Positions 1,340-22,365 of a stretch of 36,362 bases of DNA are shown in pieces. Made by a program: the position numbers and the translations under genes. The notes beneath the pieces are model-generated. The model was not told the DNA's origin, searched no databases, and worked only from the letters and a program-made list of their open reading frames with translations. This DNA comes from Candidatus Babeliales bacterium. Its GTDB lineage: Bacteria; Babelota; Babeliae; Babelales; RVW-14. The stretch is taken from the NCBI GenBank assembly GCA_044234015.1, contig JBIIJF010000001.1, positions 1 through 36,362 of the forward strand, given 5' to 3'. Numbering within the stretch: position 1 is the first letter of the stretch; every line of letters starts with the position of its first letter.

Positions 1340-2716
1340 TTATTTACTCTTTTTGGCAATACCAAAGTTATGCCCTCTGTTGCGAGGTTGGAGGCCCAAC
1401 CATCGATCAAGGATGATAGCCATGGCTGATCGTACTGACAGATGGTTATAATTAGTCATACCTTGCACTGGAATGAGCAAGTAGTCGCTCATGGCAACAA
1501 CTTCATCTGCTAATCCCTGACCAGTACCGAATAAAAGCACAACGGGCCGATCATGTTCCCAGACAATTCCCTGGTCATTAAAATCAATTGTTTGACTATG
1601 GGGCAATTTTTTGGCGCTTGTGGTGATGATAAGGGGCCTTTTTCCGGTTTCTGCGGTGATGCGTTCAAGGACTGTAGTTAGGCTAGGGGCCGTTTGTACC
1701 TTGCTTACAGCCTGGTATCGGCTTGGGTTGTAGCTTTTACCTTCTTCTGAATGCCAAAAATCAAGGAAGGTGTGGACGATAGAGAGCTGCTGAACGAGTG
1801 GGGTAACAATAAAAAAATTGTTTACGCCATAACTAGCGCATGAACGGGCAGTGTCGTGAATATCTATTGATGTCACCGATGTTGTCCCTATCTGGCCGTT
1901 TGGTAATTTGATCTGGTCGTGCATGAGTACAACGTAGTGTGGGGGGATGTTTTTTTGCGCAAGCGCGAGCGTTTCTTGTTCTGGATTATTGCTTCTAAAC
2001 CAGTCAAAACGCTTGAGTATTGTTTTTTTACAGGATTCATTCAGTTGCCATTGACGAATAACTTCGTGATTCCCGGAACGTACAACGGCGGGAATTTCTT
2101 GGTTATGCCAGACAACGGGAAGGCTATAAGCCGGGTGGTCAAGTAATGGGCCGCTGAATGAGTCTTGCTCAACAGACTGTGCATTCCCAACAATCCCAGG
2201 AGCATACCGTAAAAGCCCTTCAAGGAGGACTTGAGCTGGCAAGTCACCGCCCATCAAAACGTAATCGCCAATTGAAATAATTGCATCCGCGTAGGTTTGT
2301 TCAACACGAGCATCCATTCCTTCATAGCGAGGGCATATCAAAATAAGATGGGTGCTAGCTGCTTGATCTACCGATGATGTCTCTTGGTAGTTGCCTGGGA
2401 AGAGTTCAGCAGCAAGGCTTTTAAGAACAGGTTGGGAGAGTATTGTGCCTTGTGGAGAGAAGAAAATTTTAAAGCCGTCACCATGCGTTTCGATGCAGTG
2501 ATTAAGGGCTTTTTCCACAACGTCTGGTTTAAGAATCATGCCAGCGCTTGGTCCACAAAGTGCTTGATCAATTCGTTCTTTGACAGCAACAAAGTCTGAA
2601 AAACGTATTAAATTAATTTTCAGCAGGCCTTTTTCTTGTGCCTTGCCAATAAGACTAAGCTTTAAAAAAGTTTCGTGAATCTCAGGAAAAACGCTGATAA
2701 TGCTGATAGTTATCAT
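1340..2716 (-). CDS. trmD: tRNA (guanine37-N1)-methyltransferase TrmD fused to a C-terminal second SPOUT-type RNA methyltransferase domain (Methyltrn_RNA_4 / TM1570-like)
   Basis: The N-terminal ~245 aa carry TrmD motifs (ISVFPE, PRYEGMDARV, ISIGDYVLMGGDLPAQVLLEGLLRYAPG, SGNHEVIRQW). The C-terminal ~200 aa match my recollection of the PF09936 family (TSVTSIDIHDTARSCASYGV..FFIVTP, YNPSRYQA, LLFGTGQGL, NYNHLSVRSAMAIILDRWLG). It is one continuous 458-aa ORF. Confidence 0.88.
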   Translation of the reverse strand: MITISIISVFPEIHETFLKLSLIGKAQEKGLLKINLIRFSDFVAVKERIDQALCGPSAGMILKPDVVEKALNHCIETHGDGFKIFFSPQGTILSQPVLKSLAAELFPGNYQETSSVDQAASTHLILICPRYEGMDARVEQTYADAIISIGDYVLMGGDLPAQVLLEGLLRYAPGIVGNAQSVEQDSFSGPLLDHPAYSLPVVWHNQEIPAVVRSGNHEVIRQWQLNESCKKTILKRFDWFRSNNPEQETLALAQKNIPPHYVVLMHDQIKLPNGQIGTTSVTSIDIHDTARSCASYGVNNFFIVTPLVQQLSIVHTFLDFWHSEEGKSYNPSRYQAVSKVQTAPSLTTVLERITAETGKRPLIITTSAKKLPHSQTIDFNDQGIVWEHDRPVVLLFGTGQGLADEVVAMSDYLLIPVQGMTNYNHLSVRSAMAIILDRWLGLQPRNRGHNFGIAKKSK

Positions 2717-6958: not shown

Positions 6959-7537
6959 ATGAAAATTGCATTAGGATGTATTATATTTAGCGTATTTTTT
7001 CTCATGACGCCTTGTACGGTCCGTGCCGGTGTGCCTTCTGGGGGCGATTCCACGGGCGATTCCACAGACGATTTGAGGCGGGCAGTTAATGCGTGGAAAG
7101 CAGATTTAGTTAACCCGCTTGGCGAGCAAGAACAACCGCTGTTTGCAGCAATCAAAGTAGGTAATCCTCTAGCCGTGCAGGTGTTGTTGAGCGAAAATTC
7201 GTTTAATCTAGTAGCCAGAACAGCAGAAGGGGATTCCTGCTGGCATGTGCTAGCCCGCAGCATCATTAAGGGTAAAGAGTCTGAATTTATCCACATTGCA
7301 GATATGCTAAAAAAAGCGGATTGCGACCTATTGGTTACGAATAATGAAGGGCAGGGGGTTCTTCATTTAGCGGTTTTCTCTGGCTGTAAACCGCTTATAA
7401 AACGATTAATTACATGGGGTGTTGATATTCTGGCTAAAGATGCTCTAGGTAGGGCTCCTGATCATGAGGACTATGATGCATATGAGGTTTTTCAGGAGTG
7501 CCTAAAGGATGTAGTTGAGACATTACCACGGGCTTAA
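6959..7537 (+). CDS. Secreted ankyrin-repeat protein
   Basis: The N-terminal signal peptide is MKIALGCIIFSVFFLMTPCTVRA. Ankyrin-type repeats are present (PLFAAIKVGNPLAVQVLL, NNEGQGVLHLAVFSGCKPLIKRLITWGVDILAKDALGRAP). A GGGGGAG RBS precedes the ATG. Confidence 0.8.
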   Translation: MKIALGCIIFSVFFLMTPCTVRAGVPSGGDSTGDSTDDLRRAVNAWKADLVNPLGEQEQPLFAAIKVGNPLAVQVLLSENSFNLVARTAEGDSCWHVLARSIIKGKESEFIHIADMLKKADCDLLVTNNEGQGVLHLAVFSGCKPLIKRLITWGVDILAKDALGRAPDHEDYDAYEVFQECLKDVVETLPRA

Positions 7538-7575: not shown

Positions 7576-8019
7576 ATGAAACGATGTTTTTTTGTACTTG
7601 CTTTTCTGTGGCAAGGGATTGTTCTTCCATGCGGCCCTGTTGGCGCTCATCCGGATGACCAATGGGATTGTGGGATGGCGCCACCACAAGCCTTGTTTGT
7701 TTCTGAGTGTACTGTTTTTGGTTTTCCGCTGCATCATGCCGTGCGTAATCGTCTCCTTGAATCCGTACAGAAAGCCCTCAAAGGGGGCTGTGGCCCTAAT
7801 TCACGTAATAAAGCCGGTCAGGTTCCTTTGCTTGTTTTGGTGAGTACAACTTATGCTTATAACGATGATGGCGTTGCTATTGAGATTGCTCGTGAGCTCA
7901 TACGTCACGGTGCACGGCTCGACACGGTCCGCGACGATGGCAAGACATTGTTACAGATTGCAAGTTTTCAAGGGGCTGTTCGCTTCGGCAATTTTTTACG
8001 TGAGGCAGGGGCTTACTAG
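7576..8019 (+). CDS. Secreted ankyrin-repeat protein
   Basis: The signal-like N-terminus is MKRCFFVLAFLWQGIVLPCGPVGA. Ankyrin-type repeats are present (FPLHHAVRNRLLESVQKALKGGCGPNSRNKAGQVPLL, ARELIRHGARLDTVRDDGKTLLQIA). Confidence 0.75.
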   Translation: MKRCFFVLAFLWQGIVLPCGPVGAHPDDQWDCGMAPPQALFVSECTVFGFPLHHAVRNRLLESVQKALKGGCGPNSRNKAGQVPLLVLVSTTYAYNDDGVAIEIARELIRHGARLDTVRDDGKTLLQIASFQGAVRFGNFLREAGAY

Positions 8020-8134: not shown

Positions 8135-9784
8135 ATGATTCGACGATTTATGTTTTTGGTGCTTATGGCTTTTTGTGTTGGGGCGCCTGCTCAGCTTGTG
8201 CTTGCTAGGGGAAAGGGCAAGGTGAAAAATCTTGCTACGCGCACTTTTAACGCGAACACAAAGGTATTGTCTGATCGAGAATGGAAAGATGTTTTGGTAG
8301 ACGTTAAAGACAGCTGTGTGCAGATTGTTGCCTACGGTACCCCTTTTAATTTTGAGCTTCCGTTTCGTAAGGCAGATGTTCAGGCTGATGCCGGCAGCGG
8401 TTTTTTTATTGAAGTAGAGAAGCGTTTGTGTGTGGTGACTAATTACCATGTTGTCGACCAATCCTGCAGTATTTATCTGCAGCATGCTGGTGCATGGCAA
8501 GAAAAAATAGAGTTAGAGTTGCTTGGTGCATGTCCTGAGTTTGATATAGCTCTGCTGGGGTTTAAGACTGGTCAGCAAGCGTTTTTAGAGGGGAAATTAG
8601 CTGGGAAGAAAATTGTCCCTTTGGTATTGGGTGATTCAGATAAAATAAGTATCGGTGACGAGATCATGGTTCTTGGATATCCGCTTGCTCAACCGCACTT
8701 AAAGCAGTCAATTGGTCGGGTATCTGGTCAAGAGCCAACATCATTTGGAGAATGTTTTACAACAACTGCTGCAGTAGCGCCGGGTAGCTCTGGTGGTCCG
8801 TGTCTTAATAAAAAAGGTGAGGTTGTTGCACTGACGGTAGCCATGGTGAAGGACTCTCAAGGCTATAATTTTTTACTTCCTATCTCGCGTGAAAAAGTTG
8901 TACTTGATCAGTTGAAGGATGGCGTCATTTTGCCAAATTTTTCATTTGGAGCTCAGTTTGTATCGACAACGCCAGACATGGCAGCATATTTAAACGCTCC
9001 GGTTGAAGGGGGCGTTCTTGTTGTTGCTGTAACACCTGGTGGGACTTGTGATAAGGCTGGTATCATCAAGGGTGATCTTATTACCGGATTGGTGTATGAA
9101 GACTACAGGATGGCGGTTGATCGATTTGGCTATGCATCGGTTCCATGGACTACATCTCGCATGGGTCTTCGTGATATTTTCGCCCGGGTGCAGTATGGTA
9201 CTATTGTAAATGTTGAGTTGTATCGTGATGGGCAGCTCAATCTTATTCCAATACAAAAAACAGTAGCGGTTTCAACAACGGGTATCGCAAATAAACATAT
9301 CCCGTTTGAAAATGCTCCTGAGTATGAAGTTTTTGCTGGTTGTGTTATCACTGAAGTCACGCAGAATTTATCGCTAGAATGGCTTTCTCAGTTATGCAAA
9401 CAGTGCAAGGGGAAATCTCTGAATAGAGATGCAGGTAGTGCTTTTTCAAAAATAAGTGAGCCTCTTTTGCAAGAAAATGAATGGCAAGGAGTTGTTATTT
9501 CATACATATTACCAACGAGTGTTTTTGGCACGAGTAAAGTCTTTGAGCAGGGCCCGTGTTACATAAAAACGGTTAATAACATTCCTGTTTCCACCATTCC
9601 TGAGTATCGTCAGGCGCTTTTGAAGAGCCGTGAAACTGGCTACATTGTGCTGGAAGCAATGAATGGTGTTATTGGGGTAGTAAAATTAGCGACAGCCCTT
9701 GAGCAAGAGCCTCAAATGGCAGAAATGTATGGCTATCCATTGTCAGAGAGCTATCATGCGCTGAGTGTCGGTGTGGCTGCTTAG
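8135..9784 (+). CDS. Trypsin-like serine protease of the HtrA/Deg family (S1C) with C-terminal PDZ-like region
   Basis: The catalytic triad contexts are TNYHVV, FDIALLGF and GSSGGPC. The N-terminal part resembles Deg2/Deg9-type proteases (PFNFELPFRK...GSGFFI). The start is placed at ATG 8135 (GGAGAAAG RBS, signal peptide MIRRFMFLVLMAFCVGAPAQLVLA). ATG 8093 is an alternative, and the track start at 7853 overlaps the previous gene. Confidence 0.85.
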   Translation: MIRRFMFLVLMAFCVGAPAQLVLARGKGKVKNLATRTFNANTKVLSDREWKDVLVDVKDSCVQIVAYGTPFNFELPFRKADVQADAGSGFFIEVEKRLCVVTNYHVVDQSCSIYLQHAGAWQEKIELELLGACPEFDIALLGFKTGQQAFLEGKLAGKKIVPLVLGDSDKISIGDEIMVLGYPLAQPHLKQSIGRVSGQEPTSFGECFTTTAAVAPGSSGGPCLNKKGEVVALTVAMVKDSQGYNFLLPISREKVVLDQLKDGVILPNFSFGAQFVSTTPDMAAYLNAPVEGGVLVVAVTPGGTCDKAGIIKGDLITGLVYEDYRMAVDRFGYASVPWTTSRMGLRDIFARVQYGTIVNVELYRDGQLNLIPIQKTVAVSTTGIANKHIPFENAPEYEVFAGCVITEVTQNLSLEWLSQLCKQCKGKSLNRDAGSAFSKISEPLLQENEWQGVVISYILPTSVFGTSKVFEQGPCYIKTVNNIPVSTIPEYRQALLKSRETGYIVLEAMNGVIGVVKLATALEQEPQMAEMYGYPLSESYHALSVGVAA

Positions 9785-9800
9785 AGTTAATTTTTATATC

Positions 9801-9851
9801 GTCAACAAAGAATGTGCTTTTTTCTAAAAAAACAGCGAATTCTTTGTTGAC
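9801..9851 (+). terminator. Long hairpin downstream of the protease gene (possible terminator)
   Basis: A perfect 13-bp inverted repeat (gtcaacaaagaat 9801-9813 / attctttgttgac 9839-9851) flanks a 25-nt spacer. The spacer is itself T-run/A-run self-complementary. Confidence 0.4.
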
Positions 9852-9874
9852 TTTTCACACAGATAGGGTAGATT
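9847..9874 (+). promoter_or_regulatory. Candidate sigma70-type promoter for tRNA-Gly
   Basis: TTGACT (9847-9852), a 16-nt spacer and TAGATT (9869-9874) lie about 27 nt upstream of the mature tRNA 5' end. This is a pattern match only. Confidence 0.3.
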
Positions 9875-9900
9875 TCTCTTTGTTCTTTGGCATTTGTTAA

Positions 9901-9975
9901 GCGGGAATAGCTCAGTGGTAGAGCATTGCCTTGCCAAGGCAAGGGTCGCGGGTTCGAATCCCGTTTCCCGCTCCA
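9901..9975 (+). tRNA. tRNA-Gly (GCC), CCA encoded
   Basis: GCGGGAATAGCTCAGTGGTAGAGCATTGCCTTGCCAAGGCAAGGGTCGCGGGTTCGAATCCCGTTTCCCGCTCCA gives a full cloverleaf. The anticodon stem is TTGCC/GGCAA with loop TTGCCAA, and the discriminator is U. Confidence 0.95.
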
Positions 9976-12311: not shown

Positions 12312-12353
12312 TACGTAATATGCCGAGTGGCTGGGCGCAGAGGGGAGAGCGTA

Positions 12354-13730
12354 ATGGTCATTATACACTTGCAGCGTGTTTACGCATTATTGCTCATGAT
12401 GGCATTATGGCAACCCATGAGTTTGGAAGCACAAGCACCCCGGCAGCATAAAAAGATGGCACAAAAAAAGAAACGCCGTTCCCCCGTAAAAAAAAGAGTG
12501 CAAAAAAAACCACAACAAAAAAACAAACGCCCTGGTAAACGGTCTCAAAAAACAGCAACAACCGCAAAAGAAGATGTTGTTGAATTCTCAAAAACCATAT
12601 GTAAATTCTTTGCCAACGACGAGCTTGATGCCATTAAAAATTCGGGTTCAAAAGAGATTCTATGGCAAAAAACTAATGTAAAGCCATTCAGTGAGCTTAT
12701 TCTTTCGTGGAATGCATTTCGGCCACTGAGTGGTTATTTTACTATCTGGGTAAGTGTTTTGTATGAAAAAAAATGGTCAAAATGGCATCGCTTGGCCCAA
12801 TGGGGTGCTAAGACCCAAAAAACATTTTTAAATAAAATGCATCCACACGTGCATACAAAACATTGTCGTGTAGACTTGCAGCAGGGGCACTTGGCTCGTG
12901 GCTTTCGAGCGAAAATTGTTTGCCATAAAGGTGCCCAGCCAGACCTTGTGAAGGCAATGTTTGCCTGCGTCTCCAGATTAAATCAGCATAAAATAGTATT
13001 CCCAGCAGACTCATTGGTGTCAGCGGGCAAGCATCATTCTGGTATGCTTAAAAATCAGTACACAAAAATATCACAGTTTATGCTTGATCATCCACGAAAG
13101 GGTGATATTTGTTCTCCCGTAAGCACGGCTATGATGGTTGGTTATTTTCATCGGCAACTCTATGGTACAAAGCCGCACCCATCCATGAGTACCTATGCAA
13201 TGGATTTTACTAAAAAAGTTCATGATCAAGGGTATTTGAATATTTTTGGTAATTGGATTTTGAACACCGCTCACGCATTTCATGCCGTGAATGGTGAAGT
13301 ATACTTTTCAGTGCAGCGCTTGAATAGTTTCTATGACCTTCACCATTACCTTTCTCACCATGTGCCCGTGGTGGTGAGTGTGCGCCGGTTGCTTGGTGGG
13401 GCTACACCGTATGCCGGTGGCCATCTGCTGATGGTTGTTGGGTATGATGCGCAGGGAAAAGAAGTTGTAACACTTGATCCAGCCTTTGCAACCCATAGTG
13501 CTACTTTTAAAAAATATCCGCTTCGTGCATTTATTCGTGCATGGGGACGCTCAAATAATTTATCTTACGTGCCGTTTACAAAAAAAATGGTGGATACCAT
13601 GCTCAAAGAAGTGGTGACTGCTGGCTCTTGTTTAGCGAGGCGCTTTGATGAGCCATTAGTTGGGCCACTTTTGCAACAGTTGGAGCCACTGCCGCTGCCA
13701 CCTTCTGTACCGTGTGGTGAGACTGTTTAG
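12354..13730 (+). CDS. Secreted papain-fold cysteine peptidase, C39-like (Peptidase_C39_2-type), with poly-basic N-terminal region
   Basis: The start is ATG 12354 after GGGGAGAG. The signal peptide is MVIIHLQRVYALLLMMALWQPMSLEA. A ~45-aa Lys/Arg-rich tract follows. The candidate catalytic Cys context is GDICSPVSTAMMVGYF and the His context is GGHLLMVVGYDAQGKEVVTLDPAF. Confidence 0.7.
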   Translation: MVIIHLQRVYALLLMMALWQPMSLEAQAPRQHKKMAQKKKRRSPVKKRVQKKPQQKNKRPGKRSQKTATTAKEDVVEFSKTICKFFANDELDAIKNSGSKEILWQKTNVKPFSELILSWNAFRPLSGYFTIWVSVLYEKKWSKWHRLAQWGAKTQKTFLNKMHPHVHTKHCRVDLQQGHLARGFRAKIVCHKGAQPDLVKAMFACVSRLNQHKIVFPADSLVSAGKHHSGMLKNQYTKISQFMLDHPRKGDICSPVSTAMMVGYFHRQLYGTKPHPSMSTYAMDFTKKVHDQGYLNIFGNWILNTAHAFHAVNGEVYFSVQRLNSFYDLHHYLSHHVPVVVSVRRLLGGATPYAGGHLLMVVGYDAQGKEVVTLDPAFATHSATFKKYPLRAFIRAWGRSNNLSYVPFTKKMVDTMLKEVVTAGSCLARRFDEPLVGPLLQQLEPLPLPPSVPCGETV

Positions 13731-13828: not shown

Positions 13829-16384
13829 ATGGATACAAAAAAATACACAAATGCCGTTGTAGAACTCTTGCAAAATGCCTATCAATTAGCGGTAACAAAC
13901 CAAAATCCAACATGTACAGCCGACCATCTTTTGGTGGGGTTGCTTGAGCATGAGCTTACTCAATCGTGCGTACGTGCATTAAACATAGATCTAGCACCCC
14001 TGCAAGTCGTACTGAAGAAAATACTGCAAGCTCAGCCTGCTGTTACTGGTGCAGAAGTGCAGATGGATAGGTCATTGCAACGCTTTCTTGAAGAAGCTGA
14101 AAAAGTAGCAGCATCGTTGGGTGACCAATTAGTGAGTGTTGATGCGAGCCTTCTGGCTATGATTAAAACAAGCACTATCTCAGCTGATGTAAAGATCTTG
14201 GTCCGAGCAGGTTTTGCATATGAAAAAGTTTTGGCATGGGTACAATCCATAAGAAAAGGAAATGTAGTGAGCGATCAAAATGCAGAAGGCCGCTATCAAG
14301 TGCTTGAAAAATATTGTCAAAATATTACCCAGCGAGCTGCAGAAGGCAAGCTTGATCCCGTTATTGGTCGGCATGATGAAGTGCGTCGGGTAGTGCAAAT
14401 TTTATCACGTAGAACAAAAAATAACCCTGTGCTTGTTGGTGATCCTGGCGTTGGTAAAACAGCTATTGTTGAGGGCATTGCGCAGCGTATTGTGAATAAT
14501 GATGTGCCAGAGACCTTGCAAAATCGGCGCATTTTAGCCTTAGATATGGGCGCATTGATTGCTGGCACAAAATTTCGCGGGGAATTTGAAGAGCGGCTCA
14601 AGGCCATCTTGGATGCCCTTGCCCAGGAAGCAGAGGGTGTTATTCTTTTCATAGATGAACTTCACATGCTTGTAGGTGCTGGGGCAACAGGTGGTGGCAT
14701 GGATGCCTCTAACCTCCTCAAGCCGGCGCTTGCTCGGGGCGATTTGCATTGTATTGGGGCTACAACCATTGCCGAGTACAAAAAATACATAGAAAAAGAT
14801 GCTGCTCTTGAGCGTCGTTTCCAAAAAGTGCTCATTGAAGAGCCGTCCGTTGAAGATGCCATTTCTATCTTGCGTGGGCTCAAGGAGCGTTATGAGTTGC
14901 ATCATGGCATCAGGATTAAAGACCAAGCAATTGTTAAGGCGGTGCAGCTCTCCTCGCAAATGATTGCCGATCGTTTTTTACCAGACAAAGCGATTGATCT
15001 GATTGATGAAGCAGCTGCGATGATCAAAATGGCTATTGATTCAAAGCCAGAAGATATTGATCAGATGGATCGCAAAATAAGGCAGCTTGAGATTGAAAAA
15101 GTTGCGTTGGCTAAAGAAAAAGACGATGCCTCAAAACAAAGGCTGGCACAACTTGGGGCTGAGCTTGCCAATGTAAAAGAATCACATCGTATTAAGCTTG
15201 ATCAATGGCAGGCAGAGCGTAAGCCAATCGAAGAGATTAATAAAATTAAATCGCAGATTGATGATGCTAAAAATGCGTATCAGCAAGCAGAGCGTGAGGG
15301 CGATTTTGCAAAGGCTTCCAAAATTAAGTATGGCACCCTTGCGGCGCTTGAGCAAAAGCAGGTGCAGGAGCAAGAAAAACTGAGCAAGCTCAAAACCCAT
15401 CTGATCAAAGAAGAAGTTGATGAGGACGATATTGCAACGGTTCTTGCGCGCTGGATCAAGGTTCCTGTTGAAAAACTTAAAGAGGATGAAGGACAAAAAC
15501 TCATTGCCATGGAGAGCGTGTTGCATGAGCGGGTAATTGGCCAAGACGAAGCGATTACCAAGGTGGCCAATACAATTCGAATTCATCGTGCAGGGATTGC
15601 TGATCCGAATAAGCCGATTGGCAGCTTTTTGTTCTTAGGACCAACGGGTGTTGGGAAAACAGAAGTAGCCAAGACGCTTGCGGAGTATCTGTTCAATGAC
15701 GAGCATAAAATGATTCGGATCGATATGTCTGAGTACATGGAAAAGCATTCAGTGGCACGGCTTATTGGTGCACCCCCTGGCTACGTTGGCTACGAAGAAG
15801 GTGGCCAACTGACAGAAGCCGTACGCAGGAGTCCCTACAGTGTTATTTTGTTTGATGAGATAGAAAAAGCCCACCAGGATGTATTTAATCTCTTTTTGCA
15901 GATTTTAGACGAAGGACATTTAACTGATTCGCAAGGGCGCACCGTATCGTTCAAAAATTGCATCATTATCATGACGTCTAATATTGGTTCGCCTCTTATT
16001 CTAGCGGCAAAACACGTATCTGAGAGTCTGAAGCAAGACATTGAAAAATTATTGCATCAGCACTTCCGGCCAGAATTTTTAAACCGGATAGATGAGACGG
16101 TGTATTTTAGGTCTTTGCAGGTTGAGGATATGAGTGCCATTGTGCGTGTGCAGTTGGCGTTCTTGTTTGCTCGCATGCAAGAGAAGGGCATTGAGCTCAC
16201 CGTTACACCAGCAGCAGTTGCTGCGATTGCTCAAAAAGGGTATGTCCCTGAGTTTGGTGCACGGCCACTCAAGCGCGTGATTCAGCATTACTTAGTGAGT
16301 CCGCTAGCAACGGCAATACTCAAAGAGCCGGGTAAAAAAGAGTTTGCGGTGGATTATGAAAAAGGGGCCTTTATATTCTACTAG
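13829..16384 (+). CDS. clpB: Chaperone disaggregase ClpB
   Basis: All ClpB modules are present: Clp_N repeats, D1 ([26 protein letters not shown]), a long coiled-coil M domain, D2 ([36 protein letters not shown]) and the small D2 domain. The start is ATG 13829 after GAGGTG. Confidence 0.97.
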
Positions 16385-16538
16385 GCAATTGTTTTTATCA
16401 ATATGATAAAATGGTGCCAAAATAGGCTTTTTTAATAGTTTAAGACTACCACCGTTTGTGATTGTGACAGTTACAGCTATATTTGCTGTACATGATAAAA
16501 ATATAACTGTAACTGTTATTCATTTAGGTAGGGGGGAT

Positions 16539-17840
16539 ATGCAAAAAAGTCTTATTTTTAGGTGGCTTATGAGTGTTCTTTGCCTCGTATTGCCTTGTAA
16601 TCTGGTTATTTGTTCTGAAGCAGGGGGCGTCGGGGTAAAATTACCTGTTAAGGCTAAGCCGTTAGGAGAAGAGGGGGGGGCTCAAATTAATGATGTTTCA
16701 TGGAAAAAAAGACTTGAAGAATCTATAAAAAGCATGAATTGGGAGAAAATTTTTCTGGCATCATCGGCCGTTTTTGCCTCTCATCTGGCTTATGTTGGCT
16801 CTCATCTTGCCTTTACACGCCTTATCCAGCCGGGTTGCTTTTCGCTAGCTGATTGGGTTAATGGGCGATATGAATTATGGGAAGGTGGTCGGGCGGTGTT
16901 GCACAAAGGGGCAAGTGAAGACAGTATCGCCTCGTTTTTACGTGCTCGTGTCTTTGGGCAAGAAGAGGCAGTTACTGTTCTTGCTAGAGCTATGCTTGTT
17001 GATAGTGCGGGGCTTTCTACTCCTGGTAAACCAAAGGGAAGCTTTTTATTCCTTGGTCCATCTGGGGTTGGCAAAACAGAATTAGCTATGGCTGTAGCTG
17101 AATATTATAGTGGTGATCGAAACAATTTAATCCGTTTTGATATGTCGGAGTATATGGAAAACTATAGTGCTGCACGATTAATTGGTTCTCCTCCTGGCTA
17201 TACTGGGTTCCAAGATGGAGGGCAACTTGTGAATGCAGTGAGACGTCACCCTCGAAGTGTAATTCTGTTTGATGAGATGGAAAAAGCTCATCCTAGCATA
17301 TATGACCTATTTTTACAGATTCTTGATGCAGGGAGACTTACTGATGGGCGTGGTGATGAGGTTTCCTTTGAAAATTGTATTATTATTATGACCTCAAATC
17401 TTGGTGCTGAATTATCAAAGCAACCTAAAATGCAATCTTTTGATCTGAATAGTGCTAGTTCAGCGCGAGATGATGAGAAACAGCTCAAAGAAAAAATCGA
17501 AGCAAGCCTGAAGAAATTTTTCAGGCTTGAATTTATCAACCGCATTAATGAGATTGTATTATTTAACAGGATATCCATGGAGACCTTGGCTGCCGTGGCA
17601 CGTAAAAATGTCGATGAATTGATTAAACGCATAGCTGGCCAAGGTAAAAAGCTTGAGTTTACTCCTAAGAGTATTGCTATGTTGGCAACAGAGAGCTATT
17701 CAGATACTAAGGGGGTTCGTAATTTGAAAGATCAAATATATCGCCTTGTTACGGTTCCGCTCGCAATGGCAATGCTCAAAGAGCCGGGTAAAAAAGAGTT
17801 TGCGGTGGATTACGTAAAAGATGCTTTTGTGATTGTGTAA
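16539..17840 (+). CDS. ClpB-D2-only AAA+ paralog with N-terminal hydrophobic segments (putative membrane-anchored single-ring AAA+ ATPase)
   Basis: The start is ATG 16539 after a G-rich RBS. The N-terminus MQKSLIFRWLMSVLCLVLPCNLVIC is hydrophobic, and a second hydrophobic segment is IFLASSAVFASHLAYVGSHLAF. A complete D2 module follows, roughly 70 percent identical by eye to ClpB D2 (GPSGVGKTELAM, VILFDEMEKAH, GSPPGYTGFQDGG, IIIMTSNLG, small-D2 region). Clp_N, D1 and the M domain are absent. Confidence 0.85.
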   Translation: MQKSLIFRWLMSVLCLVLPCNLVICSEAGGVGVKLPVKAKPLGEEGGAQINDVSWKKRLEESIKSMNWEKIFLASSAVFASHLAYVGSHLAFTRLIQPGCFSLADWVNGRYELWEGGRAVLHKGASEDSIASFLRARVFGQEEAVTVLARAMLVDSAGLSTPGKPKGSFLFLGPSGVGKTELAMAVAEYYSGDRNNLIRFDMSEYMENYSAARLIGSPPGYTGFQDGGQLVNAVRRHPRSVILFDEMEKAHPSIYDLFLQILDAGRLTDGRGDEVSFENCIIIMTSNLGAELSKQPKMQSFDLNSASSARDDEKQLKEKIEASLKKFFRLEFINRINEIVLFNRISMETLAAVARKNVDELIKRIAGQGKKLEFTPKSIAMLATESYSDTKGVRNLKDQIYRLVTVPLAMAMLKEPGKKEFAVDYVKDAFVIV

Positions 17841-17943: not shown

Positions 17944-18303
17944 TTAGTAGCCGCCGCGACCGCCACCAAATCCGCCACGACGAGGACCGCCGTTGCCAGC
18001 ACCACTGTCGCCAAATGGACGACGTGGACGACCGCCACCAAAGCCACCTTCTGTGCGCTCTTGTGGAGGACGTGCTTCGTTGATGCGAAGGCGTTGGCCT
18101 TGCAATTCAGCATTATTGAGGCCGTTGATAGCTGCATTACCAGCTGTCGCGTCGCCCATTTCTACGAAGCCAAAACCACGAGGTTGTCCTGTGAATTTGT
18201 CTTTCATAATGCGAACTGATACTACTGCGCCAAATTGCGCAAACAAATCATTCAACTCTTGCTCAGATACTGCATTTGCAAGGTTGCCAACGTAAAGTTT
18301 CAT
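17944..18303 (-). CDS. RRM-type RNA-binding protein with Gly/Arg-rich C-terminal tail
   Basis: The start is ATG 18303 after AAGGA. RNP2 is KLYVGNL and RNP1 is RGFGFVEM. The tail is GGFGGGRPRRPFGDSGAGNGGPRRGGFGGGRGGY. The longer track ORF (to 18369) is rejected as an extension. Confidence 0.9.
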   Translation of the reverse strand: MKLYVGNLANAVSEQELNDLFAQFGAVVSVRIMKDKFTGQPRGFGFVEMGDATAGNAAINGLNNAELQGQRLRINEARPPQERTEGGFGGGRPRRPFGDSGAGNGGPRRGGFGGGRGGY

Positions 18304-18520: not shown

Positions 18521-19264
18521 TCATGTGATAATTTGATTCAGATTGGCAATTAATGGAAGCTGTGTTCGGTTGTTTAGTGATGGGTGTGTGATATAATGAT
18601 TTCGTTGTTGATGATTTTCTAATATCGCTGACTCAATATTGAATCCACCGTTGCCGGTGACATTATTTTTGACGATGGGCTTGCGGGAACCGTTCTGCTC
18701 AGAAATGGGGCAAAGGTTTGTGGTCAGGTTGTTGGTGCCAGGGTTGTTACCGAGTAGGTTGCGCACTAGATCTTCTCTTTCATGCTTTGCTTGTGCAAGC
18801 ATCTCTTTTGCCTTAGCAATAGCCTCATGCAGTAACATTATTTTGGTATCCATGGCGGCAGCTGTCTGCTCTGGCTCTTCATACATGGCCATTATCTTAT
18901 CTTGTGCGATCGTATACCGTTCGTTAACGTAACGAATTGCAGCCTTGCGCATCGGCTCATGACCAGCATATTTAATGCATTTTTTACGCAGTTCATTGTC
19001 GCGCCATATTGCCAACCGGAAGGTTGCTTGCAGGCAAGTCTCGTGCAAAAAAAGCCATCGCTTCGCTTCTTTCAGGGTAAGTTTATCGGTGAGTCTCAGG
19101 AGGTGTTTTTTGCATGTACGGAAATGCGATTCTTGCCACGGTCTGGGAATGGCGAGCAGATATTTGTTCGTGGTTTGAACCGCTGCTGTTACGGCAGCTC
19201 GGAGCACAGAGCTAGGTGCTAGCGCGAGCCAGCAAACAATTATTAAAAGCATGCACTTGAACAT
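18521..19264 (-). CDS. Hypothetical secreted protein
   Basis: This is a 247-aa ORF with the signal peptide MFKCMLLIIVCWLALAPSSVLRA. The middle appears helical and the C-terminus is Asn-rich. No recognisable domain. Confidence 0.6.
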   Translation of the reverse strand: MFKCMLLIIVCWLALAPSSVLRAAVTAAVQTTNKYLLAIPRPWQESHFRTCKKHLLRLTDKLTLKEAKRWLFLHETCLQATFRLAIWRDNELRKKCIKYAGHEPMRKAAIRYVNERYTIAQDKIMAMYEEPEQTAAAMDTKIMLLHEAIAKAKEMLAQAKHEREDLVRNLLGNNPGTNNLTTNLCPISEQNGSRKPIVKNNVTGNGGFNIESAILENHQQRNHYITHPSLNNRTQLPLIANLNQIIT

Positions 19265-19452: not shown

Positions 19453-20319
19453 CTACGCAGGGCGGACTGAAACAAAAATTTCTTTTGCAGCCCCTATAAA
19501 CGGCAAATTAGGCTTGGTGTTAGGCATTCTACCAGTACTTTCTGGATCAAGAAACGCTTTGCGTGCTATTTCATATGGGGTTAGTTTGGAACTCTTTTTT
19601 GCTTTACAGTAGCAACTAAATAACTCCGTAACCCCAACTTTTGCAGCAAATAACAGCATGATGTCTTTGTAGGTCTTTTGGTCTATATTTGCAATTTTTG
19701 CCAACAAGTGGAGGGGGGTATTGCCTGTTTTTTCATCTACGAACAATGGAGCGGCGCCAGCGTCAAGCAAATCTTGAATAACTGAGATTAAGGACCCAAG
19801 GACAAATGGTTCTTGCAGTTTTTCTAGTTCTAGAAGCATTTGGTACAGCCTATCCCGTTCATAGCCAAGCTCATTTGTCTTATTGCAGAGAAGCATGCGG
19901 TAGCCCCTATCAAGCGCATAGCTATCCTCACAGGGCTCTATGAGACTAGCTTCTTTAGAAGTTGCCATCCCATCATCATCATACGTTTTAAAGCACGGGC
20001 TGCCGTCTTCTTCATCATCATCATCATTGTCACCTGTACCGAAACATCCTGGGGGCAGATCTTCATTCATTATGGTCGCGGATGATGCATCGTCCGTAGA
20101 GTTTGATGGGTTTTTTATTACCGGAGGAGTTCTACGATTGTGGAAATCTAGTGCTGCAGGGGTAAGACGGCTGCTGCTGGGGTCGTCAGACGGGGGGTCC
20201 TCTTGATACAGTTTGCTAGTTGCGGATATTGTCGAATAAAAAATAGTGGCGAAGAGAGATAGAACTACGATGGTGTGACGCGGTGCCATAGAAAAAATCC
20301 TAATTTTGTTGCGTTGCAT
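19453..20319 (-). CDS. Secreted protein with acidic tract and C-terminal ankyrin-like repeats
   Basis: The hydrophobic N-terminus is MAPRHTIVVLSLFATIFYSTISA; the alternative start is ATG 20289. An Asp/Glu run is present (GDNDDDDEEDG). An ankyrin-like segment follows (LLDAGAAPLFVDEKTGNTPLHLLAKIAN). Confidence 0.7.
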   Translation of the reverse strand: MQRNKIRIFSMAPRHTIVVLSLFATIFYSTISATSKLYQEDPPSDDPSSSRLTPAALDFHNRRTPPVIKNPSNSTDDASSATIMNEDLPPGCFGTGDNDDDDEEDGSPCFKTYDDDGMATSKEASLIEPCEDSYALDRGYRMLLCNKTNELGYERDRLYQMLLELEKLQEPFVLGSLISVIQDLLDAGAAPLFVDEKTGNTPLHLLAKIANIDQKTYKDIMLLFAAKVGVTELFSCYCKAKKSSKLTPYEIARKAFLDPESTGRMPNTKPNLPFIGAAKEIFVSVRPA

Positions 20320-20514: not shown

Positions 20515-22365
20515 TTATTTTTCCCATTTATATTCGTCTAGGAAGTATCGCAGTGCAGACTGGAGTGAATCATTGTCAGAGTCTATTGACAATTTGAGTG
20601 CCGTCATGCCAGCTCGATTATCTTGTGTGATAAAATCACGGGTTACCCCTGCATTTACTAAGGATGTAATGATTTTTTTGTAATTACCGTCTGTAAACTT
20701 TGTAGGGTTCATGGCAAGGCAGTGGAGAAGGGTGTTGTTGTTGGTAGGGTCAGTTTCTTTTAAGCGGCGATCTGAGTTGCCAGCTAGGGTATGAATGATC
20801 AGTTGTGCATCAGTGCTCGTTTGAACAATTGTATGCAAAGATAATGCGCCACAGACTCCGGCACCTGTGCCTGCACCAGTGGCTACTGGCAAGGTACTTG
20901 GCGCGACGGTTGCGACTGGATCAGTTCTTCTCATCATTGTGCTTGGTTGTGTTGCGGCAGGCGCAGGCATTACTGCTCCATAAAAATCACCACCGCCGGC
21001 GCCAACTCCTGCGCCGGCTCCGGCACCAGCGGCTACTGCTGCTGGTCTTTCGACTGGAGCAGCGTCAATGCGGCTGTAGATAAAAATTGCTACATCGCTG
21101 TAGTTGGGCTCTATTCTGATGGTTTGTCCACGGCCATTTTTGCCATCTCGTCCTGGCTCAACCAAAATACGGCTACCACGGAGAAGTGCATCTCTTACCG
21201 TATCTGATTCGTCATTGCGGATACCTTGGTTGGCGAATGTTGCCGTTGCGTCAGCTCTGGGGTTTAGTGTAGTAGTTCCTGTTCGGGTAGTTGGGATATC
21301 AGGATTTCCGTCCCGGTCAGAGCCATAATACATATCGTTTGCTGAATACCAGCAGCCTGCATTGTATAGAAACGTCTTGTAGTGGCCATGTCGGGTAGAA
21401 TTTCCAACGTGGGTGGCTATCCCGGTGATGCGGTATTGTTGACGATTAATAGTTAATTCATTCTTAAGTTGAGTACCAAAAAGATTTTTTTCGTCTTCAC
21501 CGGCTCGTCCAATTTTAAAAACAAGCGTTGCTGGCAAAGGATCTCTTCTTGTTGGAGGGATTAACTCTCTTACGACCGCATCTAGACTGATTGGGTTTCC
21601 ATACAGCACTTCTTCGCCAAACGCCGGCATAATATCAAAAGCTTCTATTTTGGGCTCATCCTGATAAAGAGCTTTTTGTAAAGTATCGAATAATTCCGCT
21701 GCTTCTTTTTGTTCAGCAAAACCACCAGCAATAGCTTCTGGATCAACAGCGTTGATAAATGCCTGCATTACTGGGTGTCGGCTATTAATCACGGGAATCT
21801 CACCGGTGACAGGTGCTCTGAGGCGATTGTATTCTTGGCGTAGGTTTAGAAAGGCAATAGCTAGACGATTTAAACCTCTCCGGCCGGTACGCTCGAGTTC
21901 GTCACAATGTGCTTGAATGTGTGGATTATTGAGAAAGAGATGGACAACGGTATTTGCATAGCAAGCTACACCTGTGCCAGTGTTGCCAAGAGCGGTGATA
22001 GTAAAATCGTCATCACCACGAGGATCTGCGGCTGGTCCACCACCAAATCCACCACCCCCTTCGCCAGCGGCTCTGCCTGCGCCTGCAAAAAGATCTGCAG
22101 GTGGTGCAAAAGGTGCTCGAGCTGGGCGAACTGGGGCAACGGGTGCTGGACGCGGTGCTGGGACGTCTTCCGAGGTCATCACTGCATAGAACGCAGGGAT
22201 ATCAGCATCTGGGGTCCCGCTTGTATCGTTTCCGTACGAGGCAAGAAACTGACGCATCTCGGCGATGCTTAATCCGCTCCCCGCCCCCATGAGGCTCCCC
22301 ATACCCCCCATCAGCACAAGTGCCAAGAGGTGGCTAAAAAATAATTTTTTCTTAAAAATCAGCAT
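20515..22365 (-). CDS. Secreted USP/UCH-family (peptidase C19) deubiquitinase-like cysteine protease with C-terminal ankyrin repeats
   Basis: The signal peptide is MLIFKKKLFFSHLLALVLMGGMGSLMGA, followed by a Pro/Ala-rich and Gly-rich linker. The Cys-box-like segment is ALGNTGTGVACYANTVVHLFLN (Cys135, codon 21961-21963). The His box is YRITGIATHVGNSTRHGHYKTFLYNAGCWYSANDMYY (nt 21379-21435), and the USP-domain end is AIFIYSRI. An Ala/Gly linker follows, then ankyrin repeats (NNNTLLHCLAMNP...LVNAGVTRDFITQDNRAGMTALKLSI). Confidence 0.8.
   Translation of the reverse strand: MLIFKKKLFFSHLLALVLMGGMGSLMGAGSGLSIAEMRQFLASYGNDTSGTPDADIPAFYAVMTSEDVPAPRPAPVAPVRPARAPFAPPADLFAGAGRAAGEGGGGFGGGPAADPRGDDDFTITALGNTGTGVACYANTVVHLFLNNPHIQAHCDELERTGRRGLNRLAIAFLNLRQEYNRLRAPVTGEIPVINSRHPVMQAFINAVDPEAIAGGFAEQKEAAELFDTLQKALYQDEPKIEAFDIMPAFGEEVLYGNPISLDAVVRELIPPTRRDPLPATLVFKIGRAGEDEKNLFGTQLKNELTINRQQYRITGIATHVGNSTRHGHYKTFLYNAGCWYSANDMYYGSDRDGNPDIPTTRTGTTTLNPRADATATFANQGIRNDESDTVRDALLRGSRILVEPGRDGKNGRGQTIRIEPNYSDVAIFIYSRIDAAPVERPAAVAAGAGAGAGVGAGGGDFYGAVMPAPAATQPSTMMRRTDPVATVAPSTLPVATGAGTGAGVCGALSLHTIVQTSTDAQLIIHTLAGNSDRRLKETDPTNNNTLLHCLAMNPTKFTDGNYKKIITSLVNAGVTRDFITQDNRAGMTALKLSIDSDNDSLQSALRYFLDEYKWEK

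Follow-up and report, generated by a model that had tools for sequence, protein, structure and literature searches.

Dependentiae (TM6) are protist parasites, and a contig of one such bacterium (Candidatus Babeliales bacterium, JBIIJF010000001.1), analyzed here as a single stretch of 36,362 nucleotides (hereinafter, the window), carries next to an ordinary clpB a gene that encodes only the second AAA+ module (D2) of ClpB. The locus raises the questions of where such a protein comes from and in which compartment it acts. We know of no single-ring, NBD2-only Hsp100 protein described in bacteria; proteins of this kind are established in animals (Skd3). The first-pass annotation proposed a membrane-anchored paralog with an FtsH-like topology, in which two transmembrane (TM) segments flanking an external loop would be followed by a cytosolic AAA+ module.

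The D2-only gene

The D2-only ORF is a real open reading frame, located directly after the full-length clpB, as originally noted, with a spacer of 154 nt (Table 1). It contains no internal stops, whereas 21 and 50 stops interrupt the alternative frames, and the chance of 433 stop-free codons is low (P ~1e-13). The sequence is present in three gene-call records (NCBI and JGI/IMG assemblies) and shows zero differences among contigs of four metagenome runs from three studies, so it is not an assembly artifact; being identical, these contigs carry no information for pN/pS. So far, the gene has been seen in a single species-level lineage, and a search for RNA runs came back empty.

The start codon is ambiguous, given that the public gene calls begin at GTG 16458 (460 aa) or ATG 16569 (423 aa), and the first hydrophobic segment (segment 1) is kept with all three starts, including ATG 16539. 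G-runs like the one just upstream of ATG 16539 also precede the window genes at 6959, 7576 and 18521 as well as lon. Given that promoter-like sites in this region are not above shuffle expectation, the site found in the spacer is at most suggestive. The codon-usage score of the N-terminal 128 codons is +0.23 in frame vs. -0.36 and -0.77 in the other frames (for codons 1-70, +0.25 vs. -0.55 and -0.87), a coding signal at the 16th percentile and within the range of real genes, and the N-terminal part is open over 155 codons (P ~2e-5).

The inconsistent start calls would also be compatible with a soluble cytoplasmic D2-only ATPase that starts downstream, e.g., at Met66, or has an N-terminus unseen by Sec and SRP, and that would form a free single ring or act as a subunit that modulates ClpB. 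Databases indeed contain many D2-only ORFs that lack a hydrophobic N-terminus, but these ORFs look like pieces of split two-ring ClpC or ClpB genes (for instance, P0053 is the C-terminal part of P0079), so we rejected them as a pre-existing family. Moreover, there is no SD-like sequence at Met66, codons 1-70 carry the in-frame signal given above, and all three public starts lie upstream of or inside segment 1, all of which makes a soluble protein very unlikely.

Table 1. Sequence features of the locus (positions in the window)
Feature	Position	Strand	Remarks
Full-length clpB, 851 aa	13829..16384	+	Clp_N, D1, M-domain/AAA_lid_9, D2 and D2-small (Pfam); TIGR03346 1202 bits, model 2-846
Promoter-like site TTGTGA-16-TATATT	16456..16483	+	In the spacer between clpB and the D2-only gene (154 nt); consensus match only
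G-rich SD-like run aggtagggggg	16526..16536	+	Just 5' of ATG 16539
D2-only Hsp100 ORF	16539..17840	+	433 aa, 48 kDa; 44.8 kDa if cleaved after Ala28
Residues 1-28, Sec-type signal-peptide-like	16539..16622	+	n-region MQKSLIFR, h-region WLMSVLCLVLPCNLVIC, c-region SEA, then GG
Residues 29-69, K/P/G/E-rich linker, then short helix 54-64	16623..16745	+	7 K/R, 7 D/E; AF2 pLDDT <50
Residues 70-92, weakly hydrophobic Ala/Ser/His-rich helix (proposed second TM; segment 2)	16746..16814	+	TM status doubtful
Residues 93-128, junction	16815..16922	+	Faint residual likeness to the ClpB D2 start (LADW vs. LARW); in-frame coding signal
AAA_2 large domain, residues 164-339	17028..17555	+	Pfam E 1.9e-57, 194 bits (cut-off 27)
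Walker A GPSGVGKT (K179)	17055-17078	+	Motif in the AAA_2 domain
Pore loop GYTG (Y221)	17196-17207	+	Motif in the AAA_2 domain
Walker B ILFDEMEKAH (D245/E246)	17259-17276	+	Motif in the AAA_2 domain
Loop, residues 290-320, with 13-aa insertion vs. all ClpB D2 sequences	17406..17498	+	Alignments; pLDDT ~69
ClpB_D2-small, residues 346-416	17574..17786	+	Pfam 37.5 bits (cut-off 21.9); sensor-2 R394, GVRNLKD instead of GARPLKR
3' patch near-identical in DNA to clpB 16300-16364	17756..17820	+	38 nt within it match exactly, 17775-17812 = 16319-16356

The D2 module

Residues ~125-433 comprise a full Hsp100 D2 module whose ATPase and pore look intact, which bears out the first-pass description of this part of the protein. 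In addition to the two Pfam domains with the Walker and pore-loop motifs, sensor-1 N287, the Arg finger R335 and sensor-2 R394 are all kept; the AF2 model has pLDDT >90 over residues 125-433, and the Foldseek comparison with isolated Thermus thermophilus ClpB NBD2 (4lj7, 4fcw) gives E 1e-32 and TM 0.88-0.90. The rest of ClpB is missing, again as originally described: there are no Pfam matches to Clp_N, D1 or the M-domain (AAA_lid_9), and the protein, which has no Pfam peptidase match, ends at D2-small. The ClpB equivalog model TIGR03346, for which the cut-off is 1232 bits, gives 303 bits and is matched only at positions 562-837.

Of the 83 near-invariant D2 positions, 66 are kept, all catalytic and pore residues among them, and 17 are changed, including P330L, D337N, G386S, A393V, P395N and R398D, with altered contexts around the motifs (GYTG, FRLEF, RINE and GVRNLKD). 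In the ClpB and ClpC controls, at most three such changes were found in 52 of 53 proteins, the one outlier having 13, so the ATPase or ring function of the D2-only protein may be altered or lost.

Origin of the D2-only protein

The D2-only protein is 50% identical to the adjacent ClpB (residues 564-853), which itself has orthologs at 60-78% identity in Dependentiae/Babeliales MAGs. Third codon positions of the two genes are only ~35% identical, that is, saturated, so that dN/dS was replaced by arguments from the open frame and motif retention, which show the protein to be under purifying constraint. This saturation, together with the 17 changes and the 13-aa loop, led us to reject a fresh duplicate of the neighboring clpB. 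In the 3' patch, third-position identity rises to 85%, and we read this segment as a gene-conversion tract with clpB; a 38-nt unitig of double depth corresponds to 16319-16356 in run X1.

In a neighbor-joining (NJ) tree that includes the patch, the D2-only protein is the sister of its own ClpB (67% bootstrap), a placement caused by the gene-converted patch. With the patch and the loop removed, it forms a long branch within ClpB-only clades, mostly of Dependentiae, in 72% of the replicates and is not specifically grouped with the neighboring ClpB. The protein possesses three of the seven Dependentiae-ClpB-specific residues (F258, S276 and E321) and a 13-residue motif common to it and Dependentiae ClpB, its nearest relative among ClpB/Hsp104 NBD2 modules, with which it shares the fold, the ATPase and pore motifs and 50-54% identity over the D2 core. 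It differs from ClpB in the loss of Clp_N, D1 and the M-domain, the 13-aa loop, the 17 changes and the orphan signal-like N-terminus.

An origin from ClpC had been suggested by the best PDB matches, sequence and fold matches to ClpC D2 among them, and by the length (37 aa, exactly as in ClpC) and the pattern K..K...F.L of the loop that links sensor-1 to the Arg finger. With its 13-aa insertion, this loop equals the ClpP-docking loop of ClpC in length and placement, but has KMQSF where the latter has x-G-F; the tripeptide [LIVM]-G-[FL], by which the unfoldases ClpA, ClpC, ClpE and ClpX dock to ClpP, is Q-S-F here (K-M-Q-S-F-D-L). Given that core identities are equal (53% vs. 50-52%) and that the few lineage signatures, all outside the loop, favor Dependentiae ClpB, ClpC was rejected as the main source, and derivation from the Dependentiae ClpB lineage appears most likely.

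A tandem of clpB with a D2-only gene was not found in relatives: all 18 related Dependentiae clpB loci lack a second D2 copy downstream of clpB. Second D2 matches in Acidobacteria loci were dismissed as parallels because they belong to ordinary two-ring Clp genes (e.g., a 762-aa gene in L058). The singleton status of the gene, its very long branch with the 17 changes in near-invariant positions, the orphan N-terminus and the disagreement of three gene callers on the start could all be explained by a nonfunctional or degenerate relic of a clpB tandem duplication, unexpressed or ATPase-impaired, the N-terminus of which would be read-through of former intergenic DNA. The first-pass annotation had named a decaying duplicate as the alternative to its own proposal. 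Such decay is quite unlikely, given that the frame is intact while the other frames are riddled with stops, that all catalytic and pore residues are kept although synonymous sites are saturated, and that the N-terminal coding signal resembles that of real genes; the SD-like run and the promoter-like site upstream, and the identity of the sequence in four independent metagenomes, also speak against it.

The N-terminal region

Two hydrophobic segments ~60 residues apart had been noted upstream of the D2 module. The first one, approximately residues 5-25, is strongly hydrophobic, with a mean Kyte-Doolittle (KD) value of 2.05 when averaged over 19 aa, which is of TM or signal-peptide grade, and of 2.47 when averaged over 15 aa. 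The n-h-c layout and the cleavage site between SEA and GG were read by eye; there is a positively charged n-region, an h-region within 7-17 residues and small residues at -3 and -1, as in Sec signals. A lipoprotein signal was rejected for the lack of a lipobox, given that the residue at -1 to Cys20 is Pro and that at -1 to Cys25 is Ile.

The second segment (residues ~70-92), separated from the first by ~45 rather than 60 residues, is doubtful as a TM helix. Its KD value is 1.16, below the TM threshold of 1.6, with a Hessa sum of +6.4 kcal/mol, a Wimley-White value of -4.1 and muH of 0.08-0.20. When compared with soluble and TM proteins encoded in the window, it falls within the range that the soluble controls reach in their most hydrophobic parts (KD maxima of 1.31 for ClpB, 1.51 for MnmE and 2.04 for Lon) and lies at the lower extreme of the true TM helices found in Kup, MurJ and the ABC permease, overlapping with the weakest genuine ones (e.g., Kup 333 and MurJ 34/61/388). 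Furthermore, five K/R residues are found in the preceding 15 aa and one in the following 15 aa, a bias opposite to that needed for an N-out/C-in helix, which counts against the FtsH-like topology. Taken together, a Sec-type signal peptide is a better description of the N-terminus than an FtsH-like double anchor, and under this interpretation the AAA+ module would sit outside the cytoplasm.

Marginal helices can insert as hairpins. Segment 1 could serve as a signal anchor (N-in, uncleaved), with segment 2 as a marginal TM helix inserted as a hairpin, in which case the loop of ~44 aa would be periplasmic and the D2 ring cytoplasmic and tethered to the inner membrane; such a ring, either by itself or mixed with ClpB subunits, could pull out or unfold proteins that reside in the membrane or associate with Sec. 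This arrangement is consistent with the AF2 helices at 2-16 and 68-95, albeit predicted with low confidence, and with the non-amphipathic, small-residue-rich character of segment 2, which by muH and its Wimley-White value is similar to the weakest Kup and MurJ helices. A cytoplasmic ring would also obtain ATP without extra assumptions, and gene conversion in the oligomerization-relevant small domain fits co-assembly with ClpB, the small domain of which is reportedly needed for oligomerization (Mogk et al. 2003). However, the KD and Hessa values of segment 2 are both within the range of the soluble controls, the positive-inside rule is broken not only by the flanking residues but also by the seven K/R residues of the putative periplasmic loop, and the phmmer and JGI searches described below revealed no homolog in which a hairpin would be conserved. 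A tethered cytoplasmic ring appears somewhat unlikely but is a serious rival to export. The AF2 model, which shows low-confidence helices at 2-16, 54-64 and 68-95, is uninformative at pLDDT <50 and was dropped as a guide to the topology of this region.

No homologs of the N-terminal region were detected. There is no Pfam match in residues 1-160, the N-terminal 136 aa used as a query retrieved nothing at E<=10, and a phmmer search with residues 1-128 against 1.84 billion representative proteins recovered no true homolog, only the protein itself. The match to a 2099-aa beta-helix repeat protein (P0121) is spurious, resulting from its repeated FGSHLQVVGD. A word-indexed search with the full-length sequence returned only the protein itself at full coverage, and a DNA-level scan of JGI metagenome contigs yielded matches solely via the conserved VFGQEEAV pattern at the start of D2. 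The impression that this architecture is unfamiliar was thus correct, in that the N-terminal architecture was found nowhere else among the collections searched.

Predicted function

The reading that we favor, if only tentatively, is that the D2-only protein is a Sec-exported single-ring unfoldase, a functional derivative of the D2 ring of Dependentiae ClpB that is specific to this lineage and has acquired an orphan N-terminus. For such an exported unfoldase, translation would start at ATG 16539 (or 16569), and the hydrophobic N-terminus would direct the protein to SecYEG; the translocated chain would be either freed by signal peptidase I after Ala28 or tethered via the uncleaved signal. The mature protein of ~45 kDa would consist of a flexible linker, two helices and the D2 large and small domains, and would build a single hexameric ring through D2 and the C-terminal small domain, with the Tyr221 pore loop threading substrates at the expense of host-derived ATP. 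Lacking the M-domain, the protein cannot be a DnaK-coupled ClpB disaggregase and would operate as a stand-alone unfoldase, as Skd3 or ClpX do. We infer the export, cleavage, hexamerization, ATP source and substrates of the protein.

The site of action would be the periplasm of the intracellular bacterium or, following onward secretion, the protist host; we know of no periplasm-to-host route in Dependentiae. Action in the host would parallel the signal-bearing proteins encoded nearby. Similar N-terminal signals are present in 10 of the 28 window ORFs, including those for ankyrin (6959, 7576), UCH (20515) and zf-C2H2 (25899) proteins, which can act only inside eukaryotic hosts; a run of signal-bearing genes adjoins the D2-only gene. 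In the cultured member of Dependentiae, C. destructans, signal peptides are found on 44% of the CDS and on 78% of the ankyrin proteins, Sec has been proposed to carry out the export, and host ATP is taken up (PMC6561590). The first-pass annotation had considered a location outside the cytoplasm, where ATP would be unavailable, to be incompatible with its proposal; this objection is weaker than assumed, given that Dependentiae bring host ATP in across the inner membrane (PMC6561590), so that this ATP must reach the periplasm. Nevertheless, the complete scenario, an Hsp100-type ring that is exported via Sec and runs on host ATP outside the bacterial cytoplasm, be it in the periplasm or as a host effector, must be considered unlikely.

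Comparison with known systems

One analog in overall organization is Skd3 (human CLPB; sequence match E ~5e-45), where a targeting signal and, after it, a hydrophobic stretch likewise precede a single NBD2-type ring with a C-terminal domain. Skd3 is a stand-alone, Hsp70-independent disaggregase of the mitochondrial intermembrane space, that is, outside its "home" cytoplasm (PMC7343390). In contrast to the D2-only protein, Skd3 contains, between its hydrophobic stretch and the NBD, four ankyrin repeats that are required for activity, relies on an MTS and PARL cleavage rather than a Sec signal, and is metazoan and of independent origin; residues 1-160 of the D2-only protein have no Pfam ankyrin match, and AF2 shows only low-confidence helices there.

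Torsins, ER-lumenal AAA+ proteins, similarly combine a signal sequence and a hydrophobic segment with a single Clp/Hsp100-like AAA+ module outside the cytosol, but lack the aromatic pore loop and the Arg finger and depend on LAP1 or LULL1 for activity (PMC5425593), whereas the D2-only protein retains Tyr221 and Arg335 and showed no sequence similarity specific to torsins. Plasmodium HSP101, a component of PTEX, is a signal-peptide-bearing ClpB-type unfoldase that acts beyond the plasma membrane of an intracellular parasite (PMC6550532), and its PDB entries 6e10 and 6e11 are among the matches of the D2-only protein. Unlike the latter, HSP101 is a eukaryotic, full two-ring Hsp100 with an N-domain and an M-domain, docked on EXP2/PTEX150. 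The likeness to FtsH consists of a hydrophobic segment, a hydrophilic stretch of ~45 aa, a second helix and one AAA+ module. However, in FtsH both TM helices are genuine, the AAA module belongs to the classical clade and an M41 protease is present, whereas the D2-only protein has a sub-threshold second helix with reversed charge bias, no protease and a Clp/Hsp100 D2-type module (Pfam AAA_2), which we take to belong to the HCLR clade.

Implications

The weight of the finding is limited by its restriction to one species-level lineage. Export of the protein, if real, would call into question the rule that bacterial AAA+ machines work only in the cytoplasm, and would suggest either that host ATP supplies energy in the periplasm of energy parasites or that effectors can act by unfolding proteins. 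Should an exported ring indeed run on host ATP, bacteria would have a counterpart of Plasmodium HSP101 or torsins, and the protein would be the first bacterial AAA+ unfoldase effector. If, alternatively, the protein is membrane-tethered with a cytosolic ring, it would represent an HCLR-clade analog of extractases such as Msp1 or of a protease-less FtsH. Either way, this gene is a compact natural experiment on which parts of ClpB D2 survive the loss of D1 and the M-domain: the catalytic and pore residues are kept, GARPLKR, FRPEF and other invariants have been altered, and the ClpP-docking site has gained a loop.

An ORF with an orphan N-terminus and a single ClpB-type ATPase module

The D2-only gene, named here for the second AAA+ module (D2) of ClpB, begins 154 nt past the end of a complete clpB and comprises 433 uninterrupted codons (Table; residues are counted from the ATG at 16539). 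Its product contains the Pfam domains AAA_2 (residues 164-339, E 1.9e-57) and ClpB_D2-small (346-416), with no Pfam match in residues 1-160. Residues 129-431 are 50% identical to residues 564-853 of the neighbouring ClpB (BLASTP), and the sequence matches in the PDB, which include ClpC, ClpB, Hsp104, ClpA, Plasmodium HSP101, and human CLPB/Skd3, start at query residue 129-134. An AlphaFold2 model based on a 112-sequence alignment has pLDDT >90 for residues ~125-433 and gives TM scores of 0.88-0.90 against crystal structures of the isolated NBD2 of Thermus thermophilus ClpB. The catalytic residues (Walker A K179, Walker B D245/E246, sensor-1 N287, Arg finger R335, sensor-2 R394) and the pore-loop Y221 are all retained; the first-pass annotation had described an apparently intact D2 module and proposed a search for these two domains, and both the module and the domains are indeed present.

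The same protein, residue for residue, is on record in NCBI assembly GCA_041447055.1 (a 55-kb contig), in the 36,362-bp NCBI contig of the window, and in JGI/IMG, and pieces of the gene occur on contigs from 4 lake or freshwater metagenome runs (3 studies) with zero differences and at a depth similar to that of the flanks. Given that the nearest orthologues of the window's ClpB (60-78% identity) come from Dependentiae/Babeliales MAGs, some of them labelled 'uncultured Pseudomonadota', the organism belongs to the phylum Dependentiae (TM6), whose members are obligate protist parasites.

Public start calls differ (GTG 16458, 460 aa; ATG 16569, 423 aa), and the first-pass annotation used a third start, ATG 16539 (433 aa). 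Which start is taken affects the putative signal peptide in its n-region, and the hydrophobic segment stays in every case. A G-rich Shine-Dalgarno-like run directly precedes ATG 16539, as is the case for other genes of the window; unusually G-rich runs (GGGGGG, GGGGAGGGGG) are found upstream of the genes at 6959, 7576, 16539, 18521 (-), and 29136 (-). The spacer between clpB and the D2-only gene contains a promoter-like TTGTGA-16-TATATT, which is a consensus match only.

Features of the window discussed in the text
Feature	Position	Strand	Remarks
TrmD fusion	1340-2716	-	458-aa ORF; TrmD (tRNA_m1G_MT, residues 24-236) fused to second SAM-dependent RNA methyltransferase domain Methyltrn_RNA_4 (261-440)
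ORF	6959-7537		signal-like N-terminus; Ank
ORF	7576-8019		signal-like N-terminus; Ank
Peptidase_C39_2-like	12327-13730		signal-like N-terminus; extremely basic K/R/Q-rich low-complexity stretch, residues ~40-80
clpB	13829-16384	+	full length
D2-only gene	16539-17840	+	433 aa
Inserted loop	17406-17498	+	residues 290-320; from alignment
Identical tract, 38 nt	17775-17812		matches 16319-16356 in clpB
Wider tract, ~65 nt	17756-17820		matches 16300-16364 in clpB
RRM-domain protein	17944-18303	-	small RNA-binding protein, Gly/Arg-rich tail, without signal peptide; directly 3' of and convergent with D2-only gene
ORF	18521-19264	-	signal-like N-terminus
ORF	19453-20319	-	signal-like N-terminus
ORF	20515-22365	-	signal-like N-terminus; UCH-type ubiquitin hydrolase
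ORF	25899-26711		signal-like N-terminus; C2H2 zinc finger
ORF	31662-32087	-	signal-like N-terminus
ORF	32417-33004		signal-like N-terminus

Constraint and origin

The possibility that the gene is a non-functional relic was assessed from its divergence. Third codon positions are saturated relative to clpB (~35% identical outside one 3' patch), and amino-acid identity is still ~53%; the frame has 0 internal stops versus 21 and 50 in the two other frames (the probability of 433 open codons by composition is ~1e-13). Among the 83 near-invariant D2 positions (≥95% conserved among 53 ClpB/ClpC D2 sequences), 66 are retained and 17 are altered, including P330L, D337N, G386S, A393V, P395N, R398D, and R156S, compared with ≤3 altered positions in every control except one. 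Constraint on the protein has thus clearly changed, but with the frame open, synonymous sites saturated and most near-invariant positions kept, the gene does not, on present evidence, appear to be a decaying duplicate, the alternative on which the first-pass annotation would have fallen. A relic is improbable, and the gene is probably functional.

In a neighbor-joining tree of whole D2 sequences, the protein is the sister of the neighbouring ClpB (67% bootstrap), a placement caused by signal from the C-terminal end that it shares with clpB. Here a tract is perfectly identical between the two genes, within a wider tract of 92% identity (85% at third positions), and in metagenome run X1 the identical tract shows up as a 38-nt unitig at double depth. 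We read this patch as a likely gene-conversion tract between tandem paralogues. It encodes part of the small (oligomerisation) domain, which in Escherichia coli ClpB is reportedly required for oligomerisation (work attributed to Mogk et al. 2003).

When the 3' patch and the inserted loop are removed, the protein forms a long branch; 72% of replicates group it with ClpB-only clades, most of them from Dependentiae, and 11% group it with ClpC. In its core, it is 51-54% identical to Dependentiae ClpB, against 50-52% for ClpC, and it has in common with the former 3 of 7 lineage-specific residues and one further sequence motif. Taken together, these observations place the origin of the protein most likely in the Dependentiae ClpB lineage, with fast evolution afterwards. 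The first-pass annotation had proposed looking for the tandem in related genomes; none of the 18 related Dependentiae clpB loci examined (0/18) carries a second D2 copy. One of them, L001, keeps the order MnmE, C39-like peptidase (8758-9912), ClpB, which is syntenic with the window, and has ndk after clpB. Three Dependentiae loci, L003 (10016-12133), L016, and L018, encode a ClpB of about 705-724 aa that lacks Clp_N and begins just before D1, as do the database proteins P0005, P0007, P0010, P0027, P0037, P0038, P0043, P0047, and P0049; given these many cases, loss of the N-terminal domain appears to be common in the phylum.

Relative to all ClpB D2 sequences, the protein has 13 extra residues after sensor-1 and ahead of the Arg finger. 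The resulting loop agrees exactly in length and position with the loop by which ClpC docks to ClpP and shows the pattern K..K...F.L, but its Q-S-F (KMQSF) stands in place of the [LIVM]-G-[FL] found in ClpP partners. It may be an insertion that arose by convergence, a docking loop that has degenerated, or a remnant of recombination with a gene of the ClpC type.

The N-terminal region and its topology

Residues 1-128 are an orphan region. No homologue was detected in a word-indexed search; phmmer against 1.84 billion representatives returned the protein itself and one repeat-protein match, which was rejected as spurious; and five N-terminal peptide patterns had no match in a JGI metagenome DNA scan. 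The first-pass annotation did not recognise the architecture as a described one, and none of the collections searched contains another signal-like orphan N-terminus joined to an Hsp100 D2 alone. The region looks coding, with an in-frame codon-usage score of +0.23 versus -0.36 and -0.77 in the other frames (16th percentile among 128-codon windows of real genes) and, including the upstream extension, 155 open codons (P ~2e-5); a soluble cytosolic protein translated from a downstream start is very unlikely.

Of the two hydrophobic segments proposed initially, the first is well supported and the second is doubtful as a transmembrane helix. Segment 1 (residues 5-25; KD 2.05, Wimley-White -11) is strongly hydrophobic and, with the n-region MQKSLIFR, the h-region WLMSVLCLVLPCNLVIC, the c-region S-E-A followed by G-G, and no lipobox, has the arrangement of a classical Sec-type signal peptide or of a signal anchor. 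Segment 2 (residues 70-92, IFLASSAVFASHLAYVGSHLAF; KD 1.16, Hessa +6.4 kcal/mol, Wimley-White -4.1) does not exceed the hydrophobic peaks of soluble proteins encoded in the window (KD 1.26-2.04, Wimley-White down to -8.9). In Kup, MurJ, and an ABC permease, most transmembrane helices have KD 1.5-2.5, Hessa between -2 and +5, and Wimley-White between -5 and -13. Its flanking charges (5 K/R in the 15 residues before, 1 in the 15 after) are biased opposite to expectation for an N-out/C-in helix. AlphaFold2 places helices at 2-16, 54-64, and 68-95, with pLDDT below 50. The FtsH-like hairpin, i.e., a membrane-tethered cytosolic D2 ring possibly co-assembling with ClpB, is not supported because segment 2 is weakly hydrophobic and its K/R bias is reversed; we consider this model unlikely, although a few weak helices of the transmembrane set overlap segment 2 in their scores. 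The simplest reading of the N-terminus is a putative signal peptide on an exported protein.

Neighborhood and a possible function

Small genes with signal-like N-termini are abundant in the window: 10 of its 28 ORFs start with signals similar to that of the D2-only protein, which is the first of a row of lineage-specific signal-bearing genes downstream of clpB. The Ank, UCH, and C2H2 domains of some of these ORFs make sense only within a eukaryotic host, and the set looks like a Sec-dependent effector repertoire typical of Dependentiae. In the cultured Dependentiae member Chromulinavorax destructans, signal peptides are predicted for 44% of all CDS and for 78% of the ankyrin proteins, export is proposed to run through Sec, and the cell imports host ATP (PMC6561590). 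We infer that host ATP must cross the outer membrane to reach inner-membrane importers, so the objection that ATP is unavailable outside the cytoplasm is weak for this lineage.

Each element of the mechanism proposed below has a precedent. Torsins reside in the ER lumen and combine one Clp-like AAA+ module with a signal sequence and a hydrophobic domain; the aromatic residue of the pore loop and the Arg finger are missing from them (PMC5425593), and the D2-only protein has both. Plasmodium HSP101, a ClpB-type unfoldase, carries a signal and acts in the parasitophorous vacuole (PMC6550532). The architecture of the D2-only protein is known from a single lineage. We tentatively propose that the D2-only protein is a Sec-exported single-ring unfoldase: it would be directed to Sec and leave the cytoplasm, whether cleaved after Ala28 or not, would assemble into a ring via D2 and the small domain, and, having no M-domain, would act independently of DnaK, either in the periplasm or inside the host.
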